From Escherichia coli (lineage in GTDB: Bacteria > Pseudomonadota > Gammaproteobacteria > Enterobacterales > Enterobacteriaceae): a stretch of 64,000 bases of DNA. Under the pieces are notes generated by a model that saw only the letters and a program-made list of their open reading frames with translations, searched no databases and had not been told where the DNA came from. The stretch lies in NCBI RefSeq assembly GCF_048403405.1, contig NZ_CP183129.1, one strand, 5' to 3'. Below, piece after piece: positions 2,071 through 33,713 of this stretch (its first letter is position 1; each line of letters begins with the position of its first letter). The translations under genes were made by a program, and so were the position numbers.

Positions 2071-2241
2071 TCATGGACGGCCTTGTTGTTTCAAAATATC
2101 CCAAAGCTTTTCGAGCAAACTTTTCATTCTTGGTTGTTTAAAGTCTGCTCCGGTTAAAATGTTTTTTCGTGAATGCTGCACCGATAAAATTGGGTTGAAA
2201 GGGCGAACCGATGCCGCCCCTGCAATAGCGAACTGTTGCAT
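2071..2241 (-). CDS. cIII: cIII-like small protein (56 aa; not in ORF track because under 60 aa)
   Basis: Minus-strand ORF MQQFAIAGAASVRPF...SLLEKLWDILKQQGRP with GGAG SD 8 nt upstream; resembles lambda cIII (MQYAIAG...LIDILNQPGVP, from memory); correct position downstream of N. Confidence 0.5.
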   Translation of the reverse strand: MQQFAIAGAASVRPFNPILSVQHSRKNILTGADFKQPRMKSLLEKLWDILKQQGRP

Positions 2242-2316
2242 AGGATGCTCCTTCTGTTTGATTGCATAACGAAAACGCCTCGAGTGAAGCGTTATTGGTA
2301 TGCGGTAAAGCCGCGC

Positions 2317-2685
2317 TCAGGCGGCTTTGATAGTCATATCATCTGAATCAAATATTCCTGATGTATCGATATCGGTAATTCTTATTCCTTCACTACCATC
2401 CATTGGAGGCCATCCTTCCTGACCATTTCCATCATTCCAGTCGAACTCACACACAACACCATATGCATTTAAGTCGCTTGAAATTGCTATAAGCAGAGCA
2501 TGTTGCGCCAGCATGATTAATACAGCATTTAATACAGAGCCGTGTTTATTGAGTCGGTATTCAGAGTCTGACCAGAAATTATTAATCTGGTGAAGTTTTT
2601 CCTCTGTCATTACGTCATGGTCGATTTCAATTTCTATTGATGCTTTCCAGTCGTAATCAATGATGTATTTTTTGATGTTTGACAT
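2317..2685 (-). CDS. Hypothetical early-left protein (122 aa)
   Basis: ORF track; preceded on the minus strand by a hairpin plus T-run (about 2706..2740) consistent with an N-antiterminated terminator. Confidence 0.5.
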   Translation of the reverse strand: MSNIKKYIIDYDWKASIEIEIDHDVMTEEKLHQINNFWSDSEYRLNKHGSVLNAVLIMLAQHALLIAISSDLNAYGVVCEFDWNDGNGQEGWPPMDGSEGIRITDIDTSGIFDSDDMTIKAA

Positions 2686-2867
2686 CTATTCATATCCTCA
2701 TAGATAAAAAATTGCCCTCACATTGGAGGGCAAAGAAGATTTCCAATAATCAGAACAAGTCGGATCCTGTTTAGTTACGAGCGACATTGCTCCGTGTATT
2801 CACTCGTTGGAATGAATACACAGTGCAGTGTTTATTCTGTTGTTTATGCCAAAAATAAAGGCCACCA

Positions 2868-3068
2868 TCAGGCAGCCTTGTTGTTCAGTTTACCAAGTTC
2901 TCTGGCAATCATTGCCGTCGTTCGTATTGCCCATTTATCGACATATTTCCCATCTTCCATTACAGGAAACATTTCTTCAGGCTTAACCATGCATTCCGAT
3001 TGCAGCTTGCATCCATTGCATCGCTTGAATTGTCCACACCATTGATTTTTATCAATAGTCGTAGTCAT
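2868..3068 (-). CDS. Small Cys-rich (CxxC...CxxC) putative zinc-binding protein (66 aa)
   Basis: ORF track; motif CGQFKRCNGCKLQSEC; typical small early-left phage protein. Confidence 0.45.
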   Translation of the reverse strand: MTTTIDKNQWCGQFKRCNGCKLQSECMVKPEEMFPVMEDGKYVDKWAIRTTAMIARELGKLNNKAA

Positions 3069-3146
3069 ACGGATAGTCCTGGTATTGTTCCATCACATCC
3101 TGCGGATGCTCTTCGAACTCTTCAAATTCTTCTTCCATATATCACC

Positions 3147-3473
3147 TCAAATAAGTGGTTTGCTGCCTAATTTCATTTTCTGGCTACCAACACAAGTCAC
3201 ACCCATTTCACTACGTGGCTTGCTGTACCATGTGCGCTGATTCTTGCGATCAATACGTTGCAGGTTGCTTTCAATCTGTTCGTGGTATTCAGCCAGCACT
3301 GTAAGGTCTATAGGATTCAGTGCGCTTTCTACTCGTGATTTCGGTTTGCGATTCAGCGAGAGAATAGGGCGGTTAACTGGTTTTGCGCTTACCCCAACCA
3401 ACAGGGGATTTGCTGCTTTCCATTTAGCCTGTTTCTCTGCGCGACGTTCGCGGCGGCGTGTTTGTGCATCCAT
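3147..3473 (-). CDS. N: Antitermination protein N (lambda-type, 108 aa)
   Basis: MDAQTRRRERRAEKQA.WKAANPLLVGVSAKPVNRPILSLNRKPKSRVESALNPIDLTVLAEY... matches lambda N almost residue for residue (from memory); nutL lies upstream. Confidence 0.9.
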   Translation of the reverse strand: MDAQTRRRERRAEKQAKWKAANPLLVGVSAKPVNRPILSLNRKPKSRVESALNPIDLTVLAEYHEQIESNLQRIDRKNQRTWYSKPRSEMGVTCVGSQKMKLGSKPLI

Positions 3474-3671
3474 CTGGATTCTCCTGTCAGTTAGCTTTGG
3501 TGATTGGATGGCCGGCGCTGAACCCCGGCTTACTGGTTAGAGCGCCCGCACTACCAGTGACGCTGTCTTGAGGCGCAGATTGGTTACTGCTTGCCATGAG
3601 CGCTGTTTATACATTGGTCGAGCATCAGCCTGCTCATTCATCCAATCCCAAAGCCTTCTGCTTTGAATGCT

Positions 3672-3702
3672 GCCCTTCTTCAGGGCTTAATTTTTAAGAG
3701 CC
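3672..3702 (-). promoter_or_regulatory. nutL (boxA GCTCTTAA plus boxB GCCCTGAAGAAGGGC hairpin)
   Basis: Minus-strand reading gives GCTCTTAAAAATTAAGCCCTGAAGAAGGGC, the lambda nutL arrangement, between pL and N. Confidence 0.75.
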
Positions 3703-3743
3703 TCACCTTCATGGTGGTCAGTGCGTCCTGCTGATGTGCTTAG

Positions 3744-3804
3744 TATCACCGCCAGTGGTATTTATGTCAACACCGCCAGAGATAATTTATCACCGTAGAT
3801 GGTT
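3744..3804 (-). promoter_or_regulatory. oL1-oL2-oL3 operators with leftward promoter pL
   Basis: Three 17-bp cI operator sites TATCACCGCCAGTGGTA, CAACACCGCCAGAGATA, TATCACCGTAGATGGTT with lambda spacing. Confidence 0.8.
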
Positions 3805-3960
3805 ATTTGTATGTTTTTTATATAGATTTATTTTTTGCAGGGTTGTGTGGATTGGGAAGGTGATCGAGAGATCTGAATTGCGATGTTTAGTGAGTTGTAT
3901 CTATTAATTTTGAAATAAATACAATTGGTTATGCGTTTTTTGGGGGGGCGTTAGGCAAAG

Positions 3961-3986
3961 AAAACCCGGCGCTGAGGCCGGGTTAT
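3961..3986 (-). terminator. timm-like rho-independent terminator ending the cI operon
   Basis: Hairpin AACCCGGCctcaGCGCCGGGTT followed on the minus strand by TTTTCTTTG; same sequence as the lambda terminator after rexB (from memory). Confidence 0.7.
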
Positions 3987-3993
3987 GTAGGCA

Positions 3994-4095
3994 TTATGCG
4001 GCTTTTTTGGTGTGTGCTGACGAGCGAGCCAGAATCTCGTTGATGAGAGATCTCAGGGTCATTGCATCTTTGTGCAGAGTGGACATGGTTTTCAT
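3994..4095 (-). CDS. 33-aa basic peptide ORF (MKTMSTLHKDAMTLRSLINEILARSSAHTKKAA), second gene of the cI-downstream cassette
   Basis: ATG with GAGG SD 7 nt upstream; stop 7 nt before the timm hairpin; under the ORF-track size cutoff; not a known lambda gene. Confidence 0.4.
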   Translation of the reverse strand: MKTMSTLHKDAMTLRSLINEILARSSAHTKKAA

Positions 4096-4164
4096 TGCGT
4101 TTCCTCGGTTTATTTTATGGTACTAGCCTAGTTCAAATAGACTATATGAAATCTTGATTTACTA

Positions 4165-4545
4165 TTAAGGCCATTGGGTTGGTGGAAGATCGTGGGTTTT
4201 TATCTGCGTATTTGCTTCCACACATTTATCATAGTCTAATTTCTCTACAGCAAGCAATAGTGATTCAGCATACATCAATCCTTGTTTGATGTTCATAACA
4301 TTTATGCTTGCACTTGCGGCATCCATATCCTTTGCTGTCTCTACCATGTGCTCAAAGCTTTGAGCAATAGAGTCAACACCGTTTTTCATCCTTGTAAACA
4401 CTAATTTTAGCTCATCAAGGCTTGGATTCGTTAGATCATACATCCCATGCATTCCATGGGCTTCGAATAACTCTGACAACGATCTAAGGGCGAAGTTCAC
4501 AGAATCAATAACTTGGTCGTACTTTTTCTTATCAAGATCATTCAT
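4165..4545 (-). CDS. 126-aa acidic protein of unknown function occupying the rexA/rexB position
   Basis: ORF track; starts 66 nt downstream of the cI stop on the same strand, AAGG SD about 11 nt upstream; no TM segment or motif recognised; visibly AT-richer than cI. Confidence 0.6.
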   Translation of the reverse strand: MNDLDKKKYDQVIDSVNFALRSLSELFEAHGMHGMYDLTNPSLDELKLVFTRMKNGVDSIAQSFEHMVETAKDMDAASASINVMNIKQGLMYAESLLLAVEKLDYDKCVEANTQIKTHDLPPTQWP

Positions 4546-4611
4546 TAAAAATATAACCTTTTAACTAATTGATATTGCTGCATTTATATCAATATATGCA
4601 TTTCACATATA

Positions 4612-5328
<717 letters not shown>

Positions 5329-5335
5329 TTAAATC

Positions 5336-5401
5336 TATCACCGCGAGGGATAAATATCTAACACCGTGCGTGTTGACTATTTTACCTCTAGCGGTGATAA
5401 T
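5336..5401. promoter_or_regulatory. OR3-OR2-OR1 operators with divergent promoters pRM and pR
   Basis: TATCACCGCGAGGGATA (5336..5352), TAACACCGTGCGTGTTG (5359..5375), TACCTCTAGCGGTGATA (5383..5399); pR -35 TTGACT and -10 GATAAT overlap OR2/OR1. Confidence 0.85.
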
Positions 5402-5416
5402 AGTTGCATGTACTAA

Positions 5417-5626
<210 letters not shown>

Positions 5627-5633
5627 ATAACCC

Positions 5634-5665
5634 CGCTCTTACACATTCCAGCCCTGAAAAAGGGC
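5634..5665 (+). promoter_or_regulatory. nutR (boxA CGCTCTTAC plus boxB GCCCTGAAAAAGGGC)
   Basis: Canonical lambda nutR immediately after cro. Confidence 0.8.
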
Positions 5666-5741
5666 ATTACCAGAAACAAATCTCTATGGTTTTGCGTTTC
5701 TTTGCGAAGCCAACTCTATCTAATCATTAAGGAAATTATCT

Positions 5742-6023
5742 ATGGGTACTATTGCAACTAAAAGCAAGAAAGCGGCTCGCATCGAGTCAGCCTTGCTGAA
5801 CAAACTGGCACTGATGGGGCAGAAGACATTCGCTCGAGCAATGGGGGTTCCTGAATATCAGGTAAGCAGATGGAAGAATGGTTTCTTCTCGCAGGTAAGC
5901 ATGATGCTGGCTGTTCTGGAATATGGAATCGAAGACGATGAAATGGCTGAATTGACTAAGCGGCTTGCCAATTACCTGACAAAAGAAAAAGCCCCGAAGA
6001 ACGGCGAATTCTTCGAGGCCTGA
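5742..6023 (+). CDS. cII: CII-like transcriptional activator (93 aa)
   Basis: [25 protein letters not shown]...QVSRWK...MLAVLEYG resembles lambda CII ([24 protein letters not shown]...QISRWK...LLAVLEWG) but is clearly divergent. Confidence 0.7.
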
Positions 6024-6057
6024 TGTAGAAAGACTGGATCAATCCACAGGAGTAATT

Positions 6058-6204
6058 ATGACAAAACAACTCAGTCCTTACCAGGACAAAATTCACAAAC
6101 ACATACTACGTGATCGCTTCCTGTCCAGCTTCAAGCAGCCTGGTCGATTCCTGGCTGAGTTGGAAAAAGTGAAGCTGATGCAGAAGGAGAAAGGTCATGA
6201 GTAA
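6058..6204 (+). CDS. Small ORF (48 aa) between cII and O
   Basis: ATG with AGGAG SD 6 nt upstream; stop overlaps the O start; under the ORF-track size cutoff. Confidence 0.35.
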
Positions 6205-7057
6205 TCTTGCAACCGTAACACATTTAAGGCCTTCACAACGGCCTGTGGAGCGTCGTGTGGCAGAAGTTGAAGATGGTTATACCCGTCTTGCAAATGCCCT
6301 GTATGAAGAGCTTATCGGCGCAGATTTAACGAAAAATCAGAGCAAGGTTGCCCACGCCATATGCCGTAAAACATACGGCTACGGTAAAAAGATGGATCGC
6401 ATTTCTGATAGTCAGTTAGCTCAAATTACCAGGCTGCCAAGACAGAAGGTAAACAAGGCCAAGAATGAGCTTATCGCGATGAAGGTTATCCTTCGCGAAG
6501 GCCAGCAAATCGGGCCTAACAAGAACATCGAAGAATGGCAAATCGAAGGGTGTCACTACTCTGGTGATAATGTCACTGCATTGGTGACAAAAAGTGTCAC
6601 CAAAACGGTGACAGCGCTGTCACCAAAACAGGGACACACAAAAGAAACTATTACAAAAGAAAAAAGAAATAATAAAAACACTATGTCCGAAAGTGTTCGG
6701 ACGGAGTGTGAAAAATCATCTGACCGTCACGAAGAAACCGACAAGGCATTCGAGGAAATATTCTGGTGTGCAGGCATGCGGAAAGCCGGGAAGAAAAACG
6801 CGGCTTCGGCATTCAGAACACAGTTCAGGGAATGGCGTAAAACTACCAGGGGTACGGCAAGCGAGTTTGCCACGATGCTGGCAGAAGACATCGCATGCAG
6901 GAATGGTAAGCAGTTCGGATTCGACAGGTTGTTACCATCGAGCTACCTGAACGGTCAACGCTGGAACGACGAGAAGCCAGAAACTATTCAACCACAATCC
7001 AAACCATCATCCGCAATCACCGTATCGAAAACTGGCTACGTGTTTTTCGACAGGTGA
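6197..7057 (+). CDS. O: Replication initiator, lambda O-like (286 aa)
   Basis: N-terminal half matches lambda O (DGYxRLxNxLxE...GADLTKxQxKV...KTYGxxKxMDRIxDSQLxxITxLP); contains the ori iterons internally. Confidence 0.8.
6551..6680. repeat. Origin iterons (repeated TGTCAC/GTGACA inverted-repeat units) plus adjacent A/T-rich tract inside the O gene
   Basis: GTGTCACTACTCTGGTGATAATGTCACTGCATTGGTGACAAAAAGTGTCACCAAAACGGTGACAGCGCTGTCACCAAAACAGGGACAC followed by AAAAGAAAAAAGAAATAATAAAAAC. Confidence 0.5.
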
Positions 7058-7164
7058 ACCATGAAATCAAAAATCAAATCGCTACTGGTCGCTGGTTATA
7101 ACCACGGCTGGTTAAGTATTTCGTTTGTCGATTTCTGGTTTAAAAATCTCAATCTGAGGGAATC

Positions 7165-9045
7165 ATGACACCAAGTGAACTTAGCGACCTGCTTTGGGCG
7201 CAGGTTGACAGGGTGGCTCCGCACCTGTTGCCAAACGGCAAGAAAGAGGGGCATGAGTGGGTTGCCGGTAACGTCAACGGTGACAAGGGAAACAGCCTTA
7301 AGGTCAACCTTAGCGGCAAGAAAAAATGGGCTGATTTCGCTGAGGGAGACGGCGGTGACATGCTTGATTTGTGGATGGCATGTCGTGGAATTAACCTGCA
7401 TCAGGCTATGCAGGAAGCGAAAGCCTTTCTCGGAATCAAGGATGACGATCACCATTTCGATGCCAAACGTGAGAAGAAATTCTCCAGACCTGATCGCAAG
7501 AAAATCGCCCGCTACGTTACCAGAACAGAATCCCATCTTGAGTACCTGCAATCGCGTGGCATATCGCCAGAAATCGTAAAGCGCTACGAGGTTGTCAGCG
7601 GCAAGGTGTGGAATGGAGAGCTGGAACTGGATGCTCTGGTGATTCCGTACAAACGCGATGGTGAGTTGTTGCAGGTCAAGCGAATCAGCACTGAGCGCCC
7701 GGACGGGAAGAAAGTCATTATGGCAGAAGGTGATTGCGAACCTTGTCTGTTCGGATGGCAGGCTCTGGACGCTGGCGTGAGGGCGGTTGTACTTTGCGAA
7801 GGCGAAATTGATTGTATGAGCTATGCGCAATACGGCATCTCGGCGTTATCCGTGCCGTTTGGTGGCGGGAAAGGCGCTAAACAGCAGTGGATTGAGTTTG
7901 AGTATCACAACCTCGACAGGTTTGAGGAAATATTCATCTCGATGGACGTTGATGATGTTGGTCGTGAAGCCGCAAGGGAAATCGCAAGCCGACTCGGTGA
8001 ACATCGTTGCCGTCTTGTTACTCTGCCGTACAAAGACATCAACGAATGCCTGATGAACGGTGTTACCGAGGATGAAATCTGGCAGTACATCGGCACGGCA
8101 TCCTACTTCGACCCTGAAGAACTCTACAGCGCGCGAGAGTTTTACCAGGACACTATCAACGCTTTCTACGGCAAGCAGCAGTATCTGTTTAATCCACCGT
8201 GGGAATCTCTGGTAGATAAATTCCAGTTCCGTGAGGCCGAGTTGACGCTGGTCAATGGTGTGAACGGTCACGGAAAAACGGAGGTTGTCGGGCATATGGC
8301 TCTTGAGGCAATGCGTCAGGGTGTGAAGACGTGCATCGCGTCACTTGAGCTGAAGCCTGGTATTCTCCTTAAGCGCCTTACCCGTCAGGCGACGTGCTGC
8401 AAGATGCCGCCAGTGCTGGAAATTGACTCTGCATTTAAATTTTATGACGAAAGACTTTGGGTGTTTGGCCTGACCGGAACGGCGAAAGCCGACAGGCTGA
8501 TCGAAATATTCGACTACGCTCGCCGCCGATACGGGATCCAGTTATTCATCATCGACAGCCTGATGAAATGTGGCATAGGCGACGATGACTATAACGGGCA
8601 GAAGGCGTTTGTTGACTCGATTTGCGACTTCAAAAACAAAACAAACTCCCACGTCATTCTCGTTACTCACTCGCGAAAAGGAGACAGCGAAGAAAAACCA
8701 ACCGGGAAAATGGACGTAAAAGGCTCTGGAGCGATAACAGACCTGACAGACAACCTTTTCATCATCTGGCGTAACAAGGCTCGCGAGAGAGCGTTACAGA
8801 GAGTTCAGAGTGGTGAAAAGATGTCAGAGAAGGACGAACAGCTACTGGCATCTCCGGCATCTGTTTTGATGCTTGAAAAACAACGTAACGGCGAAGGTTG
8901 GGAAGGTGGTGTCCCGTTGTTCCTTGACGAGCAATCGCACCAGTTCCTGCAACTTGAATCAGGATCGCCATATAGCTACATCGCCAATATGCCGAAATCG
9001 GAATATGACGAGGCGTGGAGACAGGAAAACGTGACGGAGTATTAA
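7165..9045 (+). CDS. Bifunctional DNA primase/helicase (T7 gp4-like; 626 aa) in place of lambda P
   Basis: Central acidic TOPRIM-like block (VVLCEGEIDCMSYAQ...ISMDVDDVGREAA) followed by Walker A GVNGHGKT and a RecA/DnaB-like C-terminal half; follows the O-like gene. Confidence 0.7.
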   Translation: MTPSELSDLLWAQVDRVAPHLLPNGKKEGHEWVAGNVNGDKGNSLKVNLSGKKKWADFAEGDGGDMLDLWMACRGINLHQAMQEAKAFLGIKDDDHHFDAKREKKFSRPDRKKIARYVTRTESHLEYLQSRGISPEIVKRYEVVSGKVWNGELELDALVIPYKRDGELLQVKRISTERPDGKKVIMAEGDCEPCLFGWQALDAGVRAVVLCEGEIDCMSYAQYGISALSVPFGGGKGAKQQWIEFEYHNLDRFEEIFISMDVDDVGREAAREIASRLGEHRCRLVTLPYKDINECLMNGVTEDEIWQYIGTASYFDPEELYSAREFYQDTINAFYGKQQYLFNPPWESLVDKFQFREAELTLVNGVNGHGKTEVVGHMALEAMRQGVKTCIASLELKPGILLKRLTRQATCCKMPPVLEIDSAFKFYDERLWVFGLTGTAKADRLIEIFDYARRRYGIQLFIIDSLMKCGIGDDDYNGQKAFVDSICDFKNKTNSHVILVTHSRKGDSEEKPTGKMDVKGSGAITDLTDNLFIIWRNKARERALQRVQSGEKMSEKDEQLLASPASVLMLEKQRNGEGWEGGVPLFLDEQSHQFLQLESGSPYSYIANMPKSEYDEAWRQENVTEY

Positions 9046-10980: not shown

Positions 10981-11242
10981 TTTCTCTGAGCTTATTTCCT
11001 TCAAAAAAGACAGAGAAGAAATGCGGACTGAATCTGTCTATTACGTTCAACACCGGAATAAACGCTCGGTGCTTGATCAGGAGCTGATTATTACCGGAGA
11101 CCTGGCATTCAGAACATATAAGGCCAGCATGGAAATGAAGGATTTCCCTAAATGTGGTTCTGAAAGAGAAGCCGCGTTAAAGCTGGCTGAGTGGATGCAG
11201 AGAATGGCTGCTGCAATTGAGAATTACTGGAGTGAACCATAA
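10973..11242 (+). CDS. Hypothetical nin-region protein (89 aa)
   Basis: ORF track; operon-style overlaps with neighbours. Confidence 0.5.
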   Translation: MSDFSELISFKKDREEMRTESVYYVQHRNKRSVLDQELIITGDLAFRTYKASMEMKDFPKCGSEREAALKLAEWMQRMAAAIENYWSEP

Positions 11243-11532
11243 TGGCTAACCTACGCAAAGAAGCGCGCGGCAGAGAATGCCAGGTACGTATTTACGGCAT
11301 ATGCAATGGCAATCCTGAAACTACAGTTCTGGCACATTACCGGATGGCTGGAATTTGCGGAGCGGGAATGAAGCCTGACGACCTGATCGGTGCATGGGCT
11401 TGTAGTGCGTGTCACGATGAAATCGACCGACGCACCCATAATCTCGACAACAAAGACGCCAGACTTTACCACCTCGAAGGCGTGATCAGAACGCAGGCGA
11501 TACTGCTGAGGGAGGGGAAGATTAAGTCATGA
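11242..11532 (+). CDS. Cys/His-rich nin-region protein (96 aa; DUF1364-like)
   Basis: Motifs CQVRIYGICNG and CSACHDEID; common partner of rusA in lambdoid nin regions. Confidence 0.5.
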   Translation: MANLRKEARGRECQVRIYGICNGNPETTVLAHYRMAGICGAGMKPDDLIGAWACSACHDEIDRRTHNLDNKDARLYHLEGVIRTQAILLREGKIKS

Positions 11533-11891
11533 ACGAATATCAGTTTGTGCTTCCATACCCGCCATCGGTGAATACCTACTGGCGAAGACGGGGAAGCCAA
11601 TACTACATCAGCGATAAAGGCCAGAAATACCGAAAAGACGTTCAGCAAATAATCAGCCAACTCAAGTTAGACATTTTCACCAAATCACGACTACGCATCA
11701 AAGTCATCGCAGACGTTCCAGACTCCCGCCGCCGAGACCTCGATAACATCCTGAAAGGTTTACTCGACTCCCTTATCCACGCCGGATTTGCGGAAGACGA
11801 CGAGCAATTCGATGACATTCGCGTAATTCGTGGCGTGAAAGTACCAGGCGGAAGGCTTGGAATAAAAATCACCGAACTGGAGAGCGTATGA
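11529..11891 (+). CDS. rusA: RusA Holliday-junction resolvase (120 aa)
   Basis: PPSVNTYWRRRG...DVPDSRRRDLDNILKGLLDSL matches the RusA catalytic core (...PDRRRRDLDN...). Confidence 0.85.
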   Translation: MNEYQFVLPYPPSVNTYWRRRGSQYYISDKGQKYRKDVQQIISQLKLDIFTKSRLRIKVIADVPDSRRRDLDNILKGLLDSLIHAGFAEDDEQFDDIRVIRGVKVPGGRLGIKITELESV

Positions 11892-12076
11892 ACGCCACAA
11901 TTCAAACGATACCAGAGCTTCTTATCCAGACACGAGGCAATCAGACCGAAGTGGCAAGGATGCTTTCCTGCGCAAGAGGAACAGTGCTCAAGTACAACCG
12001 AGACAGCAAAGGCGAGCGTCACGTAATAGTTAACGGCGTCCTGATGGTCAAACAGGGCAAAAGGGGAAGGCCATGA
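11888..12076 (+). CDS. ninH: NinH-like protein (62 aa)
   Basis: GNQTEVARMLSCARGTVLKY...VNGVLMV resembles lambda NinH (GNQTEVARRLKCSRGTVRKY...VNDVLMV). Confidence 0.55.
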   Translation: MNATIQTIPELLIQTRGNQTEVARMLSCARGTVLKYNRDSKGERHVIVNGVLMVKQGKRGRP

Positions 12077-12696
12077 GACTCGAAAGCGTAGCTAAATTTC
12101 ATTCGCCAAAAAGCCCGATGATGAGCGACTCACCACGGGCTACGGCTTCTGACTCTCTTTCCGGTACTGATGTGATGGCTGCTATGGGGATGGCGCAATC
12201 ACAAGCCGGATTCGGAATGGCTGCATTCTGCGGTAAGCATGAACTCAGCCAGAACGACAAACAAAAGGCTATCAACTATCTGATGCAATTTGCACACAAG
12301 GTATCGGGGAAATACCGTGGCGTTGCAAAACTTGAAGGAAATACTAAGGCAAAGGTACTGCAAGTGCTCGCAACATTCGCTTATGCGGATTATTGCCGTA
12401 GTGCCGCGACGCCGGGCGCAAGATGCAGAGATTGCCACGGTACAGGCCGTGCGGTTGATATTGCCAAAACAGAGCAGTGGGGGAGAGTTGTCGAAAAAGA
12501 GTGCGGAAGATGCAAAGGCGTCGGCTATTCCAGGATGCCAGCAAGCGCCGCATATCGCGCTGTAACGATGCTAATCCCAAACCTTACCCAACCCACCTGG
12601 TCACGCACTGTTAAGCCGCTGTATGACGCTCTGGTGGTGCAATGCCACAAGGAAGAGTCAATCGCAGACAATATTTTGAATGCGGTCACACGTTAG
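12073..12696 (+). CDS. Q: Late antiterminator Q (lambda-type, 207 aa)
   Basis: Sequence MRLESVAKFHSPKSPMMSDSPRATASDSLSG...NILNAVTR equals lambda Q (from memory). Confidence 0.95.
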   Translation: MRLESVAKFHSPKSPMMSDSPRATASDSLSGTDVMAAMGMAQSQAGFGMAAFCGKHELSQNDKQKAINYLMQFAHKVSGKYRGVAKLEGNTKAKVLQVLATFAYADYCRSAATPGARCRDCHGTGRAVDIAKTEQWGRVVEKECGRCKGVGYSRMPASAAYRAVTMLIPNLTQPTWSRTVKPLYDALVVQCHKEESIADNILNAVTR

Positions 12697-12738
12697 CAGC
12701 ATGATTGCCACGGATGGCAACATATTAACGGCATGATA

Positions 12739-12767
12739 TTGACTTTTTGAATAAAGTTGGGTAAATT
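12739..12767 (+). promoter_or_regulatory. Late promoter pR' (-35 TTGACT, 17-bp spacer, -10 TAAATT) with qut region
   Basis: TTGACTTTTTGAATAAAGTTGGGTAAATTTGACCC, near-identical to lambda pR'. Confidence 0.65.
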
Positions 12768-12908
12768 TGACCCAACGATGGGTTAATTCGCTCGTTGTGG
12801 TAGTGAGATAAAAAGAGGCGGCGCTTACTACCGATTCCGCCTAGTTGGTCACTTCGACGTATCGTCTGGAACTCCAACCATCGCAGGCTGAGAGGTCTGC
12901 AAAATGCA

Positions 12909-12968
12909 ATCCCGAAACAGTTAGCAGGTAATAGTTAGAGCCTGCATAACGGTTTCGGGATTTTTTAT
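12909..12968 (+). terminator. tR'-like terminator (end of the short 6S-type late leader transcript)
   Basis: Long stem AATCCCGAAAC...GTTTCGGGA followed by TTTTTTATTT, as in lambda tR'. Confidence 0.6.
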
Positions 12969-12970
12969 TT

Positions 12971-13045
12971 GGGTCAGTCGTATAAAGGTCATTACGGAAG
13001 GCTGTTAACCTTCTTATCGTGGTTCGAGTCCACGCTGTCCCGCCA
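12971..13045 (+). tRNA. tRNA-like gene, anticodon GUU (Asn) by manual fold; one T:T mismatch in the acceptor stem
   Basis: Manual cloverleaf: acceptor GGGTCAG/CTGTCCC, anticodon stem GAAGG/CCTTC with loop CTGTTAA, T-arm CGTGG-TTCGAGT-CCACG, discriminator G, encoded CCA. Confidence 0.45.
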
Positions 13046-13050
13046 AATAT

Positions 13051-13126
13051 GCTGGTTTAGCTCCAATGGTAGAGCAGTCGCCTTGTAAGCGAATGGGTAG
13101 CGGTTCAAGTCCGTTAACCAGCACCA
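13051..13126 (+). tRNA. tRNA-like gene, anticodon UGU (Thr) by manual fold
   Basis: Acceptor GCTGGTT/AACCAGC (perfect), D-arm GCTC-CAATGGTA-GAGC, anticodon loop CTTGTAA, T-loop TTCAAGT, encoded CCA. Confidence 0.55.
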
Positions 13127-13369
13127 TAACTGAGCCGTAGCCACTGGCTATCCTGAATTCATCAGTGATAGTTACGCTGCGGCCTTCTACACATGACCTT
13201 CGTGAAAGCGGTGGCAGGAGGTCGCGCTAATAACCTCCTGCCGTTTTGCCCGTGCATATCGGTCACGAACAAATCTGATTACTAAACACAGTAGCCTGGA
13301 TTTGTTCTATCAGTAATCGACCTTATTCCTAATTAAATAGAGCAAATCCCCTCAATGAAGGGGTAGAGC

Positions 13370-13573
13370 ATGTACCGTATGGACAAAATCAGAGAATGGT
13401 TCAGTTACAGCTTCGGAGGACTGACTGCGATGGGTGGCATTCTCTCCCTGAATGACTGGGCTGTCATCATTGGTATTCTTTGTACTGTCGGCACATTTGG
13501 CATCAACTGGTACTACAAGCGCAAAGAGCGCGAGGACAGATTGAATGGCAATGTCACCGGCACTACGAAATAG
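13370..13573 (+). CDS. Putative holin (67 aa) with dual start (M1-Y-R-M4)
   Basis: Two hydrophobic helices ([25 protein letters not shown]), charged C-terminus; upstream hairpin CCCCTCAATGAAGGGG before the tandem ATGs; overlaps the endolysin start. Confidence 0.6.
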
Positions 13574-14048
13574 CGTAATAGCGGCGATAAGTGGCGGGGC
13601 TATTGCTATAGCATCTGTGTTAATCACTGGACCAAGTGGTAACGATGGTCTGGAAGGTGTTAGCTACATACCATACAAAGATATTGTTGGTGTATGGACT
13701 GTATGTCACGGACACACCGGAAAAGACATCATGCTCGGTAAAACGTATACCAAAGCAGAATGCAAAGCCCTCCTGAATAAAGACCTTGCCACGGTCGCCA
13801 GACAAATTAACCCGTACATCAAAGTCGATATACCGGAAACAATGCGCGGCGCTCTTTACTCATTCGTTTACAACGTGGGTGCTGGCAATTTCAGAACATC
13901 GACGCTTCTTCGCAAAATAAACCAGGGCGATATCAAAGGCGCATGTGATCAGCTACGTCGCTGGACATATGCTGGCGGTAAGCAATGGAAAGGTCTCATG
14001 ACTCGTCGTGAGATTGAGCGTGAAGTCTGTTTGTGGGGGAAACAATGA
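13545..14048 (+). CDS. SAR-type endolysin (phage-21 R-like lysozyme, 167 aa)
   Basis: N-terminal signal-anchor-release helix [17 protein letters not shown] followed by a lysozyme core ([25 protein letters not shown]...), recalled as matching phage 21 R / DLP12 RrrD. Confidence 0.85.
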
Positions 14049-14512
14049 GCAGAGTAACCGCGATTATCTCCGCTCTGGTTATCTGCATCATCGTCTGCCT
14101 GTCATGGGCTGTTAATCATTACCGTGATAACGCCATGACCTACAAAGAGCAGCGCGATAAAAAAGTCAGTGAGCTGAAGCAGGCGACCGCCACCATTACT
14201 GACATGCAGCAACGCCATCGTGCTGCTGATGCACTCGATGCTAAATACACGAAGGAGTTAGCTGATGCGAAAGCTGAAAATGATGCTCTTCGGCGCAAGC
14301 TTGATAATGGTGGCAGGGTGCTCGTCAAAGGAAAATGCCCTGTGCCATCCTCAGCCGAAACCTCCGGCGCCTCCGGCATGGGCAATGATGCCACCGTCGA
14401 ACTCTCTCCAGTTGCTGGACGAAACGTTCTCGGTGTCCGGGACGGAATTATCCGCGACCAAACAGCACTGAGAACGCTTCAGGAATACATCAGGACGCAA
14501 TGCCTTCGATGA
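14045..14512 (+). CDS. Rz: Rz i-spanin (155 aa from MSRV; ORF track lists 14033)
   Basis: [30 protein letters not shown]...[16 protein letters not shown] matches lambda Rz N-terminal two thirds. Confidence 0.85.
14265..14471 (+). CDS. Rz1: Rz1 o-spanin lipoprotein embedded in +1 frame within Rz (68 aa)
   Basis: [21 protein letters not shown]... has a lipobox (VAGC) and a proline-rich tract ([11 protein letters not shown]), like lambda Rz1. Confidence 0.75.
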
Positions 14513-14685
14513 TAGCGATAATTTTACTCATCATCCTTCACATCTGGCTCTGTAGACAGGGTGGTGCTCACTTCTGGAGTAAATCCAGATTAAACATCTC
14601 ATTGCTGATGCTTGATATTGAGCATCTGGCGCGCAGTAAGGGGCTGCGTTGAGATAAGAGCCAGTTCATTACAAATACCAGGATT

Positions 14686-14712
14686 TAGCCTCGCATTCGC
14701 GGGGCTTTTTAT
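14686..14712 (+). terminator. Hairpin plus T-run after the lysis cassette
   Basis: AGCCTCGCattcGCGGGGCT followed by TTTTAT. Confidence 0.4.
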
Positions 14713-14854
14713 ATCTGAATTTCACAGCGCATCTCACGCGCATATTAACGAGAGCCTTTCAGTAAGCGAGCCTGAGAAATGCCGTTATAGGTGGCGACCT
14801 CTCTCGGGCGGCTTTTCTGTGAGACAGGCTCACTTTCTAAAAGGTAAAGACGCT

Positions 14855-15340
14855 ATGAATAACTTTGTTGAAATTACCTCAAGAATTGGTCGCATGTACC
14901 AAGATTTTCTTATAAGTGGAAAGGGGTCTGGCGACATCATAGAGGAAATTGACAAGCTAAGTGCAGAGCTGAGAAGGAATGGGTGTGTTAATTCTATCTT
15001 TTTTGAAACTTTGCTAAAGCAAGGCTTCATGTTTGACATGATTAATTACAACAAAGTCGCACCCAGTGCTTCGCAAAAATCATATGTGTACGTTCTGCAT
15101 GCTGAAGATAGTGGGCTAACAAAAATAGGGTTTAGTCGCAGGGTTAATAAACGAATTTCAGAGATATCTCGCATGAGTGGCGGGAAGCTAAATCTAATTG
15201 CAAAGATTCCGGCCGATAGAGAGCTTGAAACCAAATTGCACCAAAAATATTACAACTATAGGTCGCACGGGGAGTGGTTTAGTCTCAATCGTTGTCATTT
15301 GAAAGAGCTAAAAGAAATGCCTGGTAACGAACTGAAATAA
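14855..15340 (+). CDS. Moron protein (161 aa) with C-terminal GIY-YIG-like (T5orf172-type) domain
   Basis: Start chosen at ATG 14855 (AAAGG SD); the ORF-track extension from 14612 looks non-coding. Motif KSYVYVLHAEDSGLTKIGFSRRVNKRISE...GEWF fits a GIY-YIG/T5orf172 core; gene is AT-richer than its surroundings. Confidence 0.55.
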   Translation: MNNFVEITSRIGRMYQDFLISGKGSGDIIEEIDKLSAELRRNGCVNSIFFETLLKQGFMFDMINYNKVAPSASQKSYVYVLHAEDSGLTKIGFSRRVNKRISEISRMSGGKLNLIAKIPADRELETKLHQKYYNYRSHGEWFSLNRCHLKELKEMPGNELK

Positions 15341-15587
15341 TCCCCGGACTCACCAATTAACGGCAGTACAGCGAAACAACCCAAGCCAGAAAGTGGGGAA
15401 ATAACACTGACAGCCACTGAAAGATGAACCTCCTGCCTTATGGCAAAAAAGATTCTTTGTGGTGGCGGACTGATGGAAAGACATCGGTTATTGCAGAGGC
15501 CATTCAATGAGTGGTCTCGACAATGGCTTATACCCTACACGGGATAACTTAACTGATATCCCTTTTAACGGATAAACGGAGCCAACA

Positions 15588-15830
15588 ATGGCAGAGATTA
15601 TTCCCATGACTGAAGAACAGAAATTCCAGTTAGAGATTTACAAGCTGGTCATGAACCAGAACGCAGCCGCAGAGGAAGCATTTCAATTTATTGGCACTGA
15701 CGAGCTGAAGCTTGAGCTATTCAAAATTCACTTCCAGTCAGGCGGCGCTAATTCAGATATCACGACCCGCACAATCGAAGCGGTACGTAAATCGAAGGAA
15801 GCGTTAGACCTGTTCACTACCGGAGCATAA
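15588..15830 (+). CDS. Hypothetical protein (80 aa) preceding the terminase genes
   Basis: ORF track; GGAG SD; function unknown. Confidence 0.45.
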   Translation: MAEIIPMTEEQKFQLEIYKLVMNQNAAAEEAFQFIGTDELKLELFKIHFQSGGANSDITTRTIEAVRKSKEALDLFTTGA

Positions 15831-15832
15831 AC

Positions 15833-16273
15833 ATGGCGCGCCCAACAAAGTATCAAGAGGCGTACGCCGAACAGGCACGCAAACTGTGCTTGCTGGGCTA
15901 CACCGATGCAGAGCTTGCTGATTTCTTCGAAGTCAGTGAGTCAACTATTAACAAGTGGAAGCTTGATTATCCTGAGTTTTCGGAGTCCATAAAAAAGGGT
16001 AAGGCCGTCGCTGATGCAGAAGTTAGTGATCGTCTTTATCAACGCGCTATGGGCTTCGTGGCTCCAGACATCGATATTCGTGTTATTGAAAACAGAATTG
16101 TCGAAACTCCGCTTGAGAAGTATTACCCGCCTGATACAACCGCCGCCATCTTCTGGCTTAAGAACCGACAGAAGGATAAATGGCGCGATAAGGTTGATCA
16201 CGAGCTAACAGGCAAAGACGGCGGCGCAATCCAGATTGAAACATCACCGATGAGCACTCTATTCGGAAAATGA
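15833..16273 (+). CDS. Terminase small subunit (Sf6 gp1-like, 146 aa)
   Basis: C-terminus GKDGGAIQIETSPMSTLFGK matches Sf6 TerS (from memory); overlaps the TerL start. Confidence 0.8.
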   Translation: MARPTKYQEAYAEQARKLCLLGYTDAELADFFEVSESTINKWKLDYPEFSESIKKGKAVADAEVSDRLYQRAMGFVAPDIDIRVIENRIVETPLEKYYPPDTTAAIFWLKNRQKDKWRDKVDHELTGKDGGAIQIETSPMSTLFGK

Positions 16274-17685
16274 CCTCGATTAATCCTATCTTTGAACCGT
16301 TCATTGAGGCGCATCGCTATAAAGTCGCCAAAGGCGGTCGAGGTAGCGGTAAGTCATGGGCAATCGCGAGGTTGCTTGTTGAGGCGGCACGTCGGCAGCC
16401 TGTGCGTATTCTTTGCGCTCGTGAACTGCAAAACAGTATCAGCGATTCGGTAATCCGACTGCTTGAAGACACCATAGAGCGGGAAGGGTATTCGGCCGAG
16501 TTTGAAATTCAGCGTTCCATGATTCGTCATCTCGGAACAAATGCTGAATTCATGTTCTATGGCATCAAAAACAACCCGACAAAGATTAAATCGCTCGAAG
16601 GCATTGATATCTGCTGGGTGGAAGAAGCGGAAGCGGTAACGAAGGAATCATGGGATATCCTGATTCCAACCATCCGTAAGCCGTTCTCTGAAATATGGGT
16701 GAGCTTTAACCCGAAGAACATCCTCGACGATACCTATCAGCGATTCGTCGTAAATCCTCCTGATGATATTTGTCTGCTGACGGTGAACTACACCGACAAC
16801 CCGCACTTTCCTGAAGTTCTCCGTCTGGAGATGGAAGAGTGCAAACGCAGAAATCCGACACTGTATCGTCACATCTGGCTGGGTGAGCCGGTAAGCGCAA
16901 GTGATATGGCAATCATCAAACGTGAATGGCTTGAAGCTGCAACCGATGCGCACAAGAAACTCGGATGGAAAGCGAAAGGCGCTGTTGTTTCTGCGCATGA
17001 CCCGTCAGATACAGGGCCAGATGCTAAAGGTTATGCATCGCGTCACGGTTCGGTAGTTAAGCGCATTGCCGAAGGTCTGCTGATGGACATCAACGAGGGT
17101 GCTGACTGGGCTACTTCGCTGGCGATTGAAGACGGCGCTGACCATTACCTGTGGGATGGCGATGGTGTCGGTGCAGGGCTACGCAGACAGACAACGGAAG
17201 CATTCTCCGGCAAGAAAATTACCGCCACGATGTTCAAGGGCAGCGAATCGCCATTCGATGAAGATGCGCCTTATCAGGCCGGAGCATGGGCTGATGAAGT
17301 CGTACAGGGCGACAACGTTCGCACTATTGGCGATGTTTTCCGCAATAAGCGAGCGCAATTCTATTACGCGCTGGCTGACAGGCTGTATCTGACATATCGG
17401 GCGGTTGTCCACGGTGAGTATGCAGACCCCGACGACATGCTGAGCTTCGACAAAGAAGCGATAGGCGAGAAGATGCTGGAGAAGCTGTTTGCAGAACTGA
17501 CGCAGATTCAGCGCAAATTCAATAACAACGGGAAGCTGGAGCTAATGACTAAGGTCGAAATGAAGCAGAAGCTCGGTATTCCATCTCCTAACCTGGCTGA
17601 TGCGCTGATGATGTGTATGCATTGCCCAGAGTCGGCTGCGCAACCCGACTATTCCAGTTACTCAATTCCTTGTGGTGTAGGTTGA
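16270..17685 (+). CDS. Terminase large subunit (471 aa)
   Basis: Walker A KGGRGSGKSW near the N-terminus; size and position typical of P22/Sf6-like TerL. Confidence 0.9.
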   Translation: MTSINPIFEPFIEAHRYKVAKGGRGSGKSWAIARLLVEAARRQPVRILCARELQNSISDSVIRLLEDTIEREGYSAEFEIQRSMIRHLGTNAEFMFYGIKNNPTKIKSLEGIDICWVEEAEAVTKESWDILIPTIRKPFSEIWVSFNPKNILDDTYQRFVVNPPDDICLLTVNYTDNPHFPEVLRLEMEECKRRNPTLYRHIWLGEPVSASDMAIIKREWLEAATDAHKKLGWKAKGAVVSAHDPSDTGPDAKGYASRHGSVVKRIAEGLLMDINEGADWATSLAIEDGADHYLWDGDGVGAGLRRQTTEAFSGKKITATMFKGSESPFDEDAPYQAGAWADEVVQGDNVRTIGDVFRNKRAQFYYALADRLYLTYRAVVHGEYADPDDMLSFDKEAIGEKMLEKLFAELTQIQRKFNNNGKLELMTKVEMKQKLGIPSPNLADALMMCMHCPESAAQPDYSSYSIPCGVG

Positions 17686-26360: not shown

Positions 26361-27776
26361 ATGGCTACGTGGCAACAGGGTATTAATTCTGGTGGTTTTC
26401 TGGCTGGAATTGGTGCGCAAAATGAGAATGCGCCAAAGGCAAGCGACATTAACGCAACGCTTGGTCTGATTCGCGAAAACAATGAACTGGCTCGCTCAGG
26501 TGCAAATAACGTTGGTCTGACCGCGTTACGTGGTCTGGCTGGAGTTGCTGATATTTACAATCAGGAACAGCAACAGAAAGCTATTAGTGCGTTCAATAAG
26601 GTTCACGCTGATGCATGGGTTTCTGGTGATCCATCGGGACTATTTAAGTTTGCCCAGGAAAATCCAGCGTTTGTTGCACAGGCACAACAGGCGTTTTCAG
26701 GTCTTAATGATCAGCAACGCAACGATATGGGCGATTTAGCCATGAGGGCTAACGTCGCTCTTTCTCAGGGACCGGAAGCCTACAGTAAATTCATTACTGA
26801 CAACAAGGACAGGTTAAATCGCGTGGGGGCGAATGCTGACTGGATGATTCAGACAGGTATCCAGAATCCAGAGCAGCTATCACACATGCTGACTACTATG
26901 TCTCTCGGTGCGCTTGGACCAGAAAAGGCGTTTGCTGTTCAGGACAAGATGGCTGGTCGTGAAATTGACCGAGGCAGACTGGCAGAGACAATCCGCAGCA
27001 ATCAGGCTGGAGAAGCACTTCAGGCGAGAGGGCAAAACCTTTCCTATCAGTCAGCAATGACTGGGCACAATATCGCAGCACAACGCTTGGCTCTGGATCA
27101 GCAAGAGTTCGGGTTTAAGATGCAGCAAGCGCAGGAAAAGGCTCAGCAGTTGATTAGCGAAGCACCTAAGCTGTCAGTAAACATGGAAAAAGGCATCGAG
27201 ACGGCTGTAAACAATGCCACAGCATCATCAAACTCAGCCAATTCCATGAGTGCGCTTGCTCAACAGTTCAGAGCAGAAAAACCAACGACAGGTTTGTTCG
27301 GTAACGCACAGAACATGTTCGCAAAACTTACCGGAAGCGATACGACATTGCGTGATTTGCGCATTCGCCAAAATGCTCTTGTTAACAGTCAGGTTCTTAA
27401 ATTCCTACCTCCCGGCCCAGCAACGGATAAAGACGTTGAGATCGTTCGACAGGGTGCACCAACTGACATGGATAACCCTGAGACGGTCGCAAGATGGCTT
27501 GATGCGATGGCAAACCTTGAGCGACGAAACGCGCAGTTTAATGAGTTTAAAGCCGAGTGGATGAGCGCGAATGGCAATCCAGGACAATCGCGTAATGGCG
27601 GTCAGATATTGGGGTTGGATGTTAAAAAAGGTGAATCATTGGGGAGTGCCGTTAAGCGGTATATGTCAATGAATACTGACGCAGCGCCAGCACAAGATTC
27701 GACACCTTCAGGAGAACCACGGAATCAGGTTGGATCATATACCTCAAAATCAGGCATTCAATTTACGGTGGAATGA
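26361..27776 (+). CDS. Ejection protein (P22 gp20-like, 471 aa)
   Basis: Size identical to P22 gp20; gene order. Confidence 0.65.
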
Positions 27777-29614
27777 TGAAAGTAACTGCAAACGGTAAGA
27801 CATTTACCTTTCCTGATGGTACGAGCACCGAAGATATTGGCACCGCCATTGATGAGTATTTTGCTGGTCAGGCTGTTCAGCAACAAACAGTTAATCAGGC
27901 CAATAATGCACCAACACGGGAAGAACCATCATTGATGCAACAAGCTGGCGATTGGCTCACAGGTGGTCAAAGTGCAGGGCAAATTGCAGAACAGGCTGGT
28001 CGTGGTCTGGTAAACATACCATTTGACGTATTGCAGGGTGGCGCAAGTCTGATTAATGCAATCAGTCAGGGGCTTGGTGGGCCAAAAGTATTAGATGATG
28101 TCTATCGTCCAGTCGATCGACCGACAGACCCTTATGCGCAAGCTGGAGAAACAATTGGCGGGTATTTAGTTCCAGGAGTTGGAACGGCAGGAAGCATGGC
28201 TATTGGATCACTGGCAGAGGCCGCAAATCAGAAAGGCGATTTCGCACAAAATGCAGCTAAAAATGCCGGAGTTAACCTTGCCGCTCAGGGTGTTCTTTCC
28301 GCAGCAGCAAAGGGAATAGGGCGTGGAATAACGGCTATAAAAGGTGATATTGCGCCAGAAGTGGCGAAGAAAATTGCCACATCAGAATCGATGGGCGTGA
28401 CACCAATGACATCTGATGTTATCCCGCCGAAAAATGCTTTCACTCGCGGCCTTACTCAGGATGCCGAGGGGGCTTTGCTCGGGACAGGCTCAAAGCGAGC
28501 GGAGCAATATGCAACGCGTAGTAAGTTGGTAAGTAATTATTTTGACCGTTTTGGTGAGTACAACCCTGATGATGTGGTGAAATCTCTGACCACCACGTTA
28601 AGGGGGCGGAAGGATGCCGCTGGCGCTGTTATCAATGACGTCACCAATAAAATGGGTAATGCCGCAGTTGATACCACAAATACCATGAATGCTCTGAATA
28701 CAGCGATCGCAAGACAGGAACGGCTTGGGACTTCAGCCAATCAAAGCCTGCTTACATCCTTGCGTAACCTACGTGAAGAATTAGCAAACCCTGCAACTGA
28801 TTTGGATGTTACGTTTGATCTCTTGCGTCAGCACAGAACAGCATTTAGATCTAATGTTCAGGGAGATGCTATGGTCTTCCCCAACCAGGCAAAAGCAGCT
28901 ACCAATATGGTAGAGAATGCAATGTCAAAAGACCTTCGTAACGCAGTTGCTAAAAACCTCGGTGCATCAGACGCAGCAAAATACCTTAAAGCAAATTCCG
29001 ATTATGCAAACGTTTATAATAAGGTGCTTAATAAAAACATTGCTAACAAGCTCAACAAGGCAAGCAGTGAAGCCAGTCCTGAACTTATAAATACCGTTGT
29101 ATTAAGCAGAAAACCATCTGACGTAAAACGAATCTGGAGCGCATTGGATAATAAAGGGAAAGATGCTATGCGTGCAGCTTATGTCAGCAAAATAGCGGAA
29201 AAGGCCGGTGACTCTCCAGCCAAGTTCATCACTGAAGTTAATAAGCTGAAATCTCAGTCAGGCGGTGAAATTTACAACACTATTTTTTCTGGAAAGCACA
29301 TGAAAGAGCTTGATGCTCTTCATGAAGTTCTACAGCAAACAGCAAGGTCAGACACCGCAAATGTAGTAACTCAGACGGGGCAATCACAAGCCAACAGGAT
29401 AAGGACGATTGGCGCAACTGCGACTCTTGGCGTATCAATGGGGCTTGAGTCTGGCTTTGGTGCAATGATGCGTTTGTATGAGTCTAAAGCAGCAAGAAAC
29501 ATGCTTCTCCGCCTTGCAAACGTCAAGCCTGGAACTCCGGCATATGAGCGAGCGTTAAATCAGGCTGCTAACGCCGTTCGCCCTCTCCTAACTAACGAAG
29601 CTACCAGGCAGTAG
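27773..29614 (+). CDS. Ejection protein (P22 gp16-like, 613 aa)
   Basis: Size (P22 gp16 is 609 aa); gene order. Confidence 0.65.
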
Positions 29615-29633
29615 AAATGAACGCCAAGGAAGG

Positions 29634-30038
29634 CTATTTAATTCTCTTTTCAATGGCTGCAATTATTGCTTTTCCTGATGTTTCAGGAGATTTTGTAGCC
29701 ATATAAGACGAAAAAATCATGTCGGTCATTCTTTCATAACTTACTATTTCCCACTTAGCCAATGCATGGGACAGTTTGTAGTTGTCATCAGTTAGTGCCC
29801 TTATGGAATTTTTTAAGTGTTTATTCTCTTCTGTTAATCGCGCAATTTTTGTATCAATTTCATGTGAGCGATCTAATTCCTTAACCTGTTTCTTGAGGGC
29901 AGCTAACCCTGCATATAGTACGCAACAGGATATCCCAAGAGCGAGTACAACTATTTCTAACACACCAACCTCCTTAGTTTTGAGCAGGATACCAGATGAT
30001 AATGTGTAGTTGGAGTAGCGCGGTTGTAATGCAAGCAT
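29634..30038 (-). CDS. Membrane-anchored coiled-coil protein (134 aa from ATG 30038; alternative GTG start at 29963 with AAGGAGG SD gives 110 aa)
   Basis: One TM helix (LEIVVLALGISCCVLYAGLAAL) followed by heptad-rich coiled coil; divergent from the 30120 gene; AT-rich. Confidence 0.5.
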   Translation of the reverse strand: MLALQPRYSNYTLSSGILLKTKEVGVLEIVVLALGISCCVLYAGLAALKKQVKELDRSHEIDTKIARLTEENKHLKNSIRALTDDNYKLSHALAKWEIVSYERMTDMIFSSYMATKSPETSGKAIIAAIEKRIK

Positions 30039-30117
30039 TTTGTTTTAGCTTTATGCTTGCTTGTATGTGTGTACAGTGTATATAATGCAAGCATACATCA
30101 CAACAAAGGTGCTTGCA
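30030..30117. promoter_or_regulatory. Divergent promoter region with four 8-bp half-sites TGCAAGCA/TGCTTGCA in two inverted pairs around TTGCTT-N18-TATAAT
   Basis: Sites at 30030..30037, 30053..30060, 30085..30093 and 30110..30117; -10 TATAAT at 30081..30086; the last site overlaps the SD/ATG of the 30120 gene. Confidence 0.5.
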
Positions 30118-30119
30118 TT

Positions 30120-31088: not shown

Positions 31089-31092
31089 TTAT

Positions 31093-33693: not shown

Positions 33694-33713
33694 TATTCGA
33701 TAGTTAATGCAGA

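Follow-up and report, generated by a model that had tools for sequence, protein, structure and literature searches.

A PS119/SPN9CC-type lysis cassette, with an HP1-family holin and an R21-type SAR endolysin, under lambda-type late control in an Escherichia coli prophage

The stretch of DNA analysed here, a 64-kb piece that we refer to as the window, contains four overlapping phage lysis genes placed behind a late regulatory region that closely resembles that of bacteriophage lambda, and only part of these genes resembles lambda in turn. The locus therefore raises two questions: to which known type the lysis genes belong, and how they would bring about lysis when a lambda-type Q protein controls their transcription. 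As to the first, we are nearly certain that the cassette is of the type found in the Salmonella phages PS119 and SPN9CC; as to the second, the most probable answer is a small-channel holin with its own antiholin, acting together with a signal-anchor-release (SAR) endolysin and a pair of spanins. An earlier, sequence-only reading had recognised a cassette foreign to lambda behind lambda control elements. Every feature that it described was found again where it had placed them, and its interpretation was largely right; what escaped it is that this cassette has long been known and catalogued. It is an ordinary cassette, there is nothing new in it, and it reflects the normal mosaicism among lambdoid and P22-like phages. 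The database matches of the lysis genes have E-values from 1e-21 to 1e-107, and the features are therefore not due to chance. They are as follows.

12073-12696, + strand: antiterminator Q, lambda-type, 207 aa (Pfam Antiterm, E 1.3e-57)
12739-12968, + strand: late promoter pR', 6S leader and tR' region, lambda-type (within the block described below)
12971-13126, + strand: tRNA-Asn(GTT) and tRNA-Thr(TGT) (ARAGORN; Rfam tRNA, 55 and 61 bits)
13128-13365, + strand: lambda late-leader segment ending in an sdi-type stem-loop (95.4% identical to lambda 44945-45181)
13348-13352 and 13359-13363, + strand: arms of that stem, the 3' arm being the G-rich ribosome-binding site
13370-14512, + strand: lysis cassette of four overlapping genes (holin, endolysin, Rz, Rz1)
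13370-13573, + strand: class II holin, 67 aa, beginning MYRMDK (PF16080; phrog_20)
13545-14048, + strand: SAR endolysin, GH24 lysozyme of R21/RrrD type, 167 aa (Pfam, PDB 3HDE)
14045-14512, + strand: Rz i-spanin, 155 aa (Pfam Phage_lysis, 101 bits; phrog_13, E 1e-73)
14265-14471, + strand: Rz1 o-spanin lipoprotein, 68 aa, lipobox VAGC (Pfam Rz1, 75 bits; phrog_3198, E 7.5e-26)

The cassette is carried by a Kapi1-like (P22-like, Lederbergvirus) E. coli prophage integrated at argW, one end of which is marked by two features.

33728-35030: Kapi1-like integrase, adjoining tRNA-Arg(CCT)
35033-35107, - strand: tRNA-Arg(CCT), argW, marking the prophage end

Past argW lie the host genes fadL, fadI and yfcZ, and several genomes match the fadL-fadI flank at 100% identity, so that the window is a piece of E. 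coli chromosome; the other end of the prophage is out of view because the window begins within the prophage. This partial view, together with the presence of parts unlike Kapi1, leaves some room for the idea that the cassette belongs to a defective remnant and has ceased to be expressed or to function. We regard this as very unlikely, given that all four lysis reading frames are intact and nearly identical to those of viable phages, and that the regions for Q, pR', terminase, portal, capsid and integrase are all present in a prophage that is collinear with Kapi1 and keeps its gene order.

That the late regulatory region is of lambda type, as the earlier reading had it, is borne out by alignment. 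Positions 12063-12968 of the window, covering Q, pR' and tR', are 97.5% identical in DNA to lambda 43875-44781, and a match to the promoter consensus, TTGACT-17-TAAATT, is found at 12739-12767; pR', the 6S leader and tR' would be expected to function as they do in lambda. Together with the late leader, sdi stem included, this region is 95-98% identical to that of lambda and Kapi1. Between tR' and the leader, exactly in place of lambda 44782-44944, lies the pair of tRNA genes (window 12969-13127), which has no lambda counterpart but is also found in Kapi1, SPN9CC and vB_SosS_Oslo. An Rfam scan of 12500-14700 returned these two tRNAs and no curated RNA family over the leader or the hairpin. We note that in a related prophage, on two Serratia-like metagenome contigs (L017 and L018, positions 412-1283), the late leader carries a PhdYeFM antitoxin and Fic gene pair, placed after Q and before the holin.

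The first gene of the cassette encodes a protein that its sequence assigns to the HP1/PS119-gp13 family of holins. It scores 75.1 bits against Pfam PF16080 (Phage_holin_2_3), for which the cut-off is 28.8, with residues 5-53 aligned to profile positions 1-49 of 56; it matches phrog_20 'holin' (E 3.5e-25), and its database homologues are PF16080 carriers or fragments in 45 of 45 cases. The traits of the HP1 family are all found in it, namely small size, two helices, a charged tail, first place in the cassette and an endolysin gene directly downstream. We also considered, and rejected, its placement among the S21-family pinholins: against PF04971 (Phage_holin_2_1) it scores 19.5 bits, through TMD2 only, and is not filed under that family because the curated cut-off is 26. 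The sequence-only reading had described the lysis genes as being of the phage-21 type while remarking that the holin does not look like S21; the remark was correct, and the description holds for the endolysin but not for the holin. The sequences suggest, at most, a distant homology between the holin and S21, since hhalign aligns the holin family alignment with the S21 homologue EssD over the full length, including M-x-x-M-D-K, at a probability of 66% and an E-value of 5e-5. The two proteins are 35% identical over the aligned positions; they are alike in size, in having two helices of which the first is weak and the second strong, in a stem-loop over the ribosome-binding site and in a dual start with a basic residue (M-K-S-M-D-K in EssD, M-Y-R-M-D-K here), whereas they differ in Pfam family and in the loop between the helices, which is much shorter here.

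The two-helix layout proposed for this holin is seen by two approaches. Hydropathy places a weakly hydrophobic TMD1 at about residues 10-27, 47% of it Gly, Ser, Thr or Ala, and a strongly hydrophobic TMD2 at about residues 30-48, a profile that is the same in EssD, and AlphaFold2 (28 homologues) predicts helices at residues 3-22 and 27-58 with a mean pLDDT of 66, which is modest confidence. The C-terminal tail is charged, with six basic and three acidic residues. A further holin gene would have told against the assignment of the lysis function to this protein; tblastn searches of the 64 kb with lambda S, EssD and this holin found no other copy of the lambda S, S21 or PS119 type, a test to which unrelated holin families are invisible, and there is no second endolysin in the 64-kb window.

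The endolysin gene overlaps the 3' end of the holin gene by 29 nt. Its product matches Pfam Phage_lysozyme (E 1.4e-45) and aligns over its full length with PDB 3HDE, the SAR lysozyme of phage 21 (E 2.3e-107, about 96% identity), an 18-residue stretch being identical to 3HDE; it also matches PDB 4ZPU 'RrrD' and is 95% identical to K-12 RrrD. We take its catalytic Glu-Asp-Thr residues to be those of R21. A 17-residue N-terminal segment is 53% Gly, Ala, Ser or Thr, and on these grounds the protein is, as the earlier reading had proposed, a SAR endolysin of the R21 type. Phage 21 and DLP12 share with this locus both an endolysin (R21/RrrD) that is about 95-96% identical and the presence of Rz and Rz1. 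For SPN9CC, the SAR N-terminus of the endolysin is reported to be necessary for activity (review PMC8532960).

The Rz gene begins within the stop codon of the endolysin gene (ATGA). Its ATG at 14045 fits the MSRVTAII start of lambda Rz, and the GTG at 14033, which would lengthen the protein, is probably not the start. Rz1 is wholly embedded in the +1 frame of Rz, the two forming an embedded two-component spanin pair. The earlier reading had called this a lambda-like Rz with an embedded Rz1, of which the nesting and the first part of Rz stand: lambda-like DNA is limited to 14045-14292, that is to the first 248 nt or about 83 codons (89.5% identity), and from near the Rz1 start onward both genes diverge from lambda, such that the C-terminal half of Rz and Rz1 are of the HK620/SPN9CC type. 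Rz as a whole is 97% identical to that of Kapi1, 84% to PS119 gp15 and 62% to lambda Rz, and Rz1 is 47% identical to lambda Rz1. The SPN9CC spanins have been assigned to the Lambda family of i-spanins and the HK620 family of o-spanins (PMC6139136).

Comparison with lambda and Kapi1 places the borders of the exchange at gene boundaries. The interval 13366-14044 has no match in lambda or Kapi1, as was to be expected if the holin and endolysin are foreign to lambda, and lies inside a block (12958-14505) of tRNAs, leader, holin, endolysin and Rz that is 95.9% identical in DNA to SPN9CC; the adjoining interval, 14045-14712, is 97.0% identical to Kapi1, which shares with the window the two tRNAs, all of Rz and Rz1 and a downstream 50-aa reading frame. 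Relative to Kapi1, in which lambda S and R occupy the position, holin and endolysin have been exchanged exactly, the swapped stretch beginning at the holin start codon and ending at the ATGA where the endolysin stops and Rz starts. The pair thereby replaces a lambda-type S-R pair precisely, the borders being the start codon of S and the stop codon of R. Whereas lambda and Kapi1 combine the three-helix class I holin S with the soluble transglycosylase R, the window combines a class II holin with a SAR lysozyme, and the joint exchange of the two genes makes sense because a pinholin works only with a SAR endolysin. Mosaicism at gene boundaries is shown here in textbook form.

The holin has the same amino-acid sequence (100% identity) as gp13 'holin' of Salmonella phage PS119 (GenBank AJ011581, genes 13-19-15) and as its counterparts, usually annotated 'class II holin', in SPN9CC, BTP1, SE1, SEN22, vB_SemP_Emek, vB_SosS_Oslo and a large number of further P22-like phages of Salmonella. 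The cassettes of PS119, SPN9CC, BTP1, SE1, SEN22 and Oslo share with the window, besides the identical holin, the gene order and the overlap of 29 nt between holin and endolysin, although the window's endolysin is nearer to E. coli RrrD/R21 (95%) than to PS119 gp19 (92%), and phages of the PS119/SPN9CC type have a Q of the P22 gene-23 type (519 nt in SPN9CC) where the window has lambda Q. Of 5426 complete E. coli genomes, 83 contain the holin DNA at no less than 99% identity, and in nearly all cases it adjoins 'lysozyme RrrD'. For the exact 6-kb arrangement of 11000-17000, coverage exceeded 82% in no complete E. coli genome; the combination of Q, tRNAs, holin and endolysin is nevertheless not unique, since NZ_CM185151.1 carries the junction from lambda Q through the tRNAs and holin to RrrD at 100% coverage and 98.5% identity. 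The use of these comparisons lies in a correct annotation, namely a PS119/SPN9CC-type HP1-family holin with an R21-type SAR endolysin and Rz/Rz1 under lambda Q control.

How would such a holin act? An experimental precedent is HP1 Hol, the type member of PF16080, which makes lesions too small for the passage of beta-galactosidase and works with a SAR endolysin (PMC7312051); HP1 Hol and Lys share with the window the Pfam holin family, the SAR lysozyme partner and the overlap of the genes. By analogy with HP1 and phage 21, the holin is most likely a pinholin. A different reading, in which it is a canonical class II holin that makes large holes and permeabilises the membrane non-specifically, the SAR endolysin being freed as a side effect, could draw on the fact that the protein falls under the S21 family threshold and on the limited probability of the hhalign match to EssD. 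We consider that reading unlikely by a wide measure. Not only did HP1 Hol behave as a pinholin in releasing no beta-galactosidase (PMC7312051), but holins of PF16080 are consistently paired with SAR endolysins, and the composition of TMD1 here is like that of the SAR-like TMD1 of the S21 type. Among the relatives examined, nine of ten have a SAR-type, Gly/Ala-rich hydrophobic N-terminus on the downstream endolysin. The exception is APSE-7, which pairs a holin of the family with a soluble lysozyme and has an extra holin of the lambda family beside it, as would be expected if an HP1-family holin cannot release a soluble enzyme. The arrangement in this aphid-symbiont phage (L011, LR794151.1, positions 1510-2441) is a single-start HP1-family holin, followed by the lambda-family holin and then by the lysozyme. 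We note that mechanistic details may differ within the PF16080 family, since HP1 Hol (78 aa) lacks a dual start and is not known to have an antiholin, and since its authors describe an unusual N-in/C-out topology and propose a C-out active form (PMC7312051).

The leader immediately upstream of the holin folds, at minimum free energy, into a hairpin at 13348-13363 with a 5-bp stem (CCCCU/AGGGG) lying 6 nt upstream of the first AUG. By fold statistics alone this hairpin is only marginally better than shuffled sequence and not distinctive: over 51 nt the z-score is -1.85 and 8 of 200 shuffles fold as well, and over 76 nt the z-score is -0.13. It had earlier been called reminiscent of lambda sdi, and the relation proves to be closer still. 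An alignment of the 100 nt around the start codon, comprising the window, lambda, Kapi1, SPN9CC and E. coli 55989, showed no variation in the leader as far as the end of the 5' arm (CCCC); the 3' arm (GGGG) and the ATG are likewise shared by all, the differences being confined to the loop and a few bases. Because both arms and their flanks align with those of lambda base for base, with the loop changed, the hairpin is lambda's own sdi stem-loop by homology rather than a look-alike. In lambda, the sdi structure reportedly governs the choice between the two S starts, according to work by Blasi and colleagues and by Chang and colleagues.

The holin itself begins M-Y-R-M, with two in-frame start codons, Met1 and Met4, separated by a basic residue, Arg3, and could thus give rise to two products.

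13370, + strand: start of the putative antiholin form, from Met1, 67 aa (M-x-R-M)
13379, + strand: start of the putative pinholin form, from Met4, 64 aa (M-x-R-M)

These tandem starts, already pointed out in the earlier reading, are conserved. All 23 close homologues that include the N-terminus have M-x-R-M, in which x is Y, Q, H or T, and in the two homologues annotated from Met4 that were covered by our upstream check (P0017 and P0039) an in-frame M-I-R or M-H-R precedes the annotated start; two further homologues annotated from Met4 (P0013 and P0025), whose contigs were not traced, were outside that check. Taking the close homologues with P0017 and P0039, no variation is seen at Met1, Arg3 or Met4, and position 2 is occupied by Y, Q, H, T or I. 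More distant relatives with unrelated leaders begin M-K-M (Yersinia), M-R-M (Morganella, Providencia) or M-T-R-M (HK225), and the first AUG of the relatives is preceded by a short stem-loop, the 3' arm of which is the G-rich ribosome-binding site (stems CCCC/GGGG, CUCC/GGGG and CCGA/UCGG).

It might be argued that a single start is used and that there is no antiholin, in which case M-x-R-M would supply a topogenic positive charge and the hairpin would be a leftover of the shared lambda leader. The hairpin is indeed inherited from the lambda leader, and its conservation could be historical because the same leader also precedes the unrelated lambda S in Kapi1; moreover, the family members mEp013, APSE-7 and HP1 have no dual start. 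History would not account for the fixity of Met1, Arg3 and Met4 around a variable second residue, nor for the fact that Yersinia, Morganella and HK225, whose upstream DNA is unrelated, also have two Met codons with a basic residue between them and a ribosome-binding site covered by a stem-loop; the same arrangement yields a holin and an antiholin in lambda S and S21 (PMC9636201). The single-start reading thus seems to us unlikely, and the use of both starts, by analogy with lambda and phage 21, the better expectation. Our literature search found no direct demonstration of dual-start or antiholin behaviour for this widespread holin, the SPN9CC lysis study of Shin et al. (2014) lying outside that search; queries on sdi with dual starts returned unrelated papers only, and queries on the PS119/PS34 holin returned nothing useful.

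We therefore favour, on the strength of the HP1 and phage 21 precedents, the conserved dual start, the recurring stem-loops and the SAR pairing in relatives, a mechanism with a pinholin, an antiholin, a SAR endolysin and spanins, and hold it in its entirety to be likely; large holes, a single start and a dead prophage are each less well supported. In this mechanism the lambda-type Q would modify RNA polymerase at pR', allowing it to read through tR', the two tRNAs and the late leader into the cassette. The first gene product, a two-helix class II holin of the HP1/PS119-gp13 type acting most likely as a pinholin, would build up in the inner membrane in its 64-aa form initiated at Met4 and, at a set time, form small channels that collapse the membrane potential, while the 67-aa form initiated at Met1, with one extra positive charge (Arg3), would serve as the antiholin that delays triggering. 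The ratio of the two products would be set by the sdi-type stem-loop through sequestration of the ribosome-binding site. Depolarisation would then free the Sec-exported, membrane-tethered endolysin of the R21 type, which would refold and degrade the murein, and Rz and Rz1 would disrupt the outer membrane last. The model for these steps is phage 21, whose pathway runs from membrane depolarisation by the pinholin to release of the SAR endolysin, with the longer product of the dual start, which has an extra positive charge, as the antiholin (PMC9636201).

The position of the homology break, which by alignment falls within the loop of sdi and at the holin start, together with the analogous stem-loops in the unrelated leaders of Yersinia, Morganella and HK225, invites a further and more tentative proposal, to which we would give somewhat less than an even chance. 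The sdi stem-loop may control translation as a portable element, serving non-homologous holins of both class I (lambda S) and class II (the HP1-family holin of the window), and may at the same time be a recombination joint for holin-endolysin swaps; the HP1 family would then use a lambda-style Met1/Met4 antiholin switch, which HP1 itself lacks.

In HK225 (L013, JQ086371.1, positions 1354-1632) the holin is 92 aa long and shares only the second helix and the C-terminal tail with that of the window. It has an insertion of about 22 residues and a different first half, and the coding region of the shared tail overlaps the start of the endolysin gene. The insertion and the divergent first half suggest recombination inside the HK225 holin gene.

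The surroundings of the cassette also hold several features of their own. A 50-aa reading frame at 14500-14652 (+ strand), whose start overlaps the Rz stop and whose product has a hydrophobic N-terminus, matches only PHROG 11822 (function unknown; E 4e-36) and is kept in Kapi1 (Kapi1_042) and E. coli 55989; it could encode a small membrane protein, as yet uncharacterised, that accompanies the lysis cassette, and a terminator-like hairpin (14687-14706) lies 3' of it. Further on, between the cassette and the terminase, a stretch that has no Kapi1 counterpart (14713-15351) holds a reading frame at 14856-15340 (+ strand) whose product contains T5orf172/MUG113 (GIY-YIG-like) domains (Pfam E 9e-13) and matches phrog_4284. 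In E. coli NCTC11121 the annotation reads 'GIY-YIG nuclease family protein', and the stretch may be a mobile nuclease insertion. Elsewhere in the prophage, the segments 2075-9045, 26960-31538 and 31830-33727 resemble Kapi1 hardly or not at all in nucleotide sequence; their position suggests that they correspond to the immunity/early region and to the tail-spike or late accessory region.
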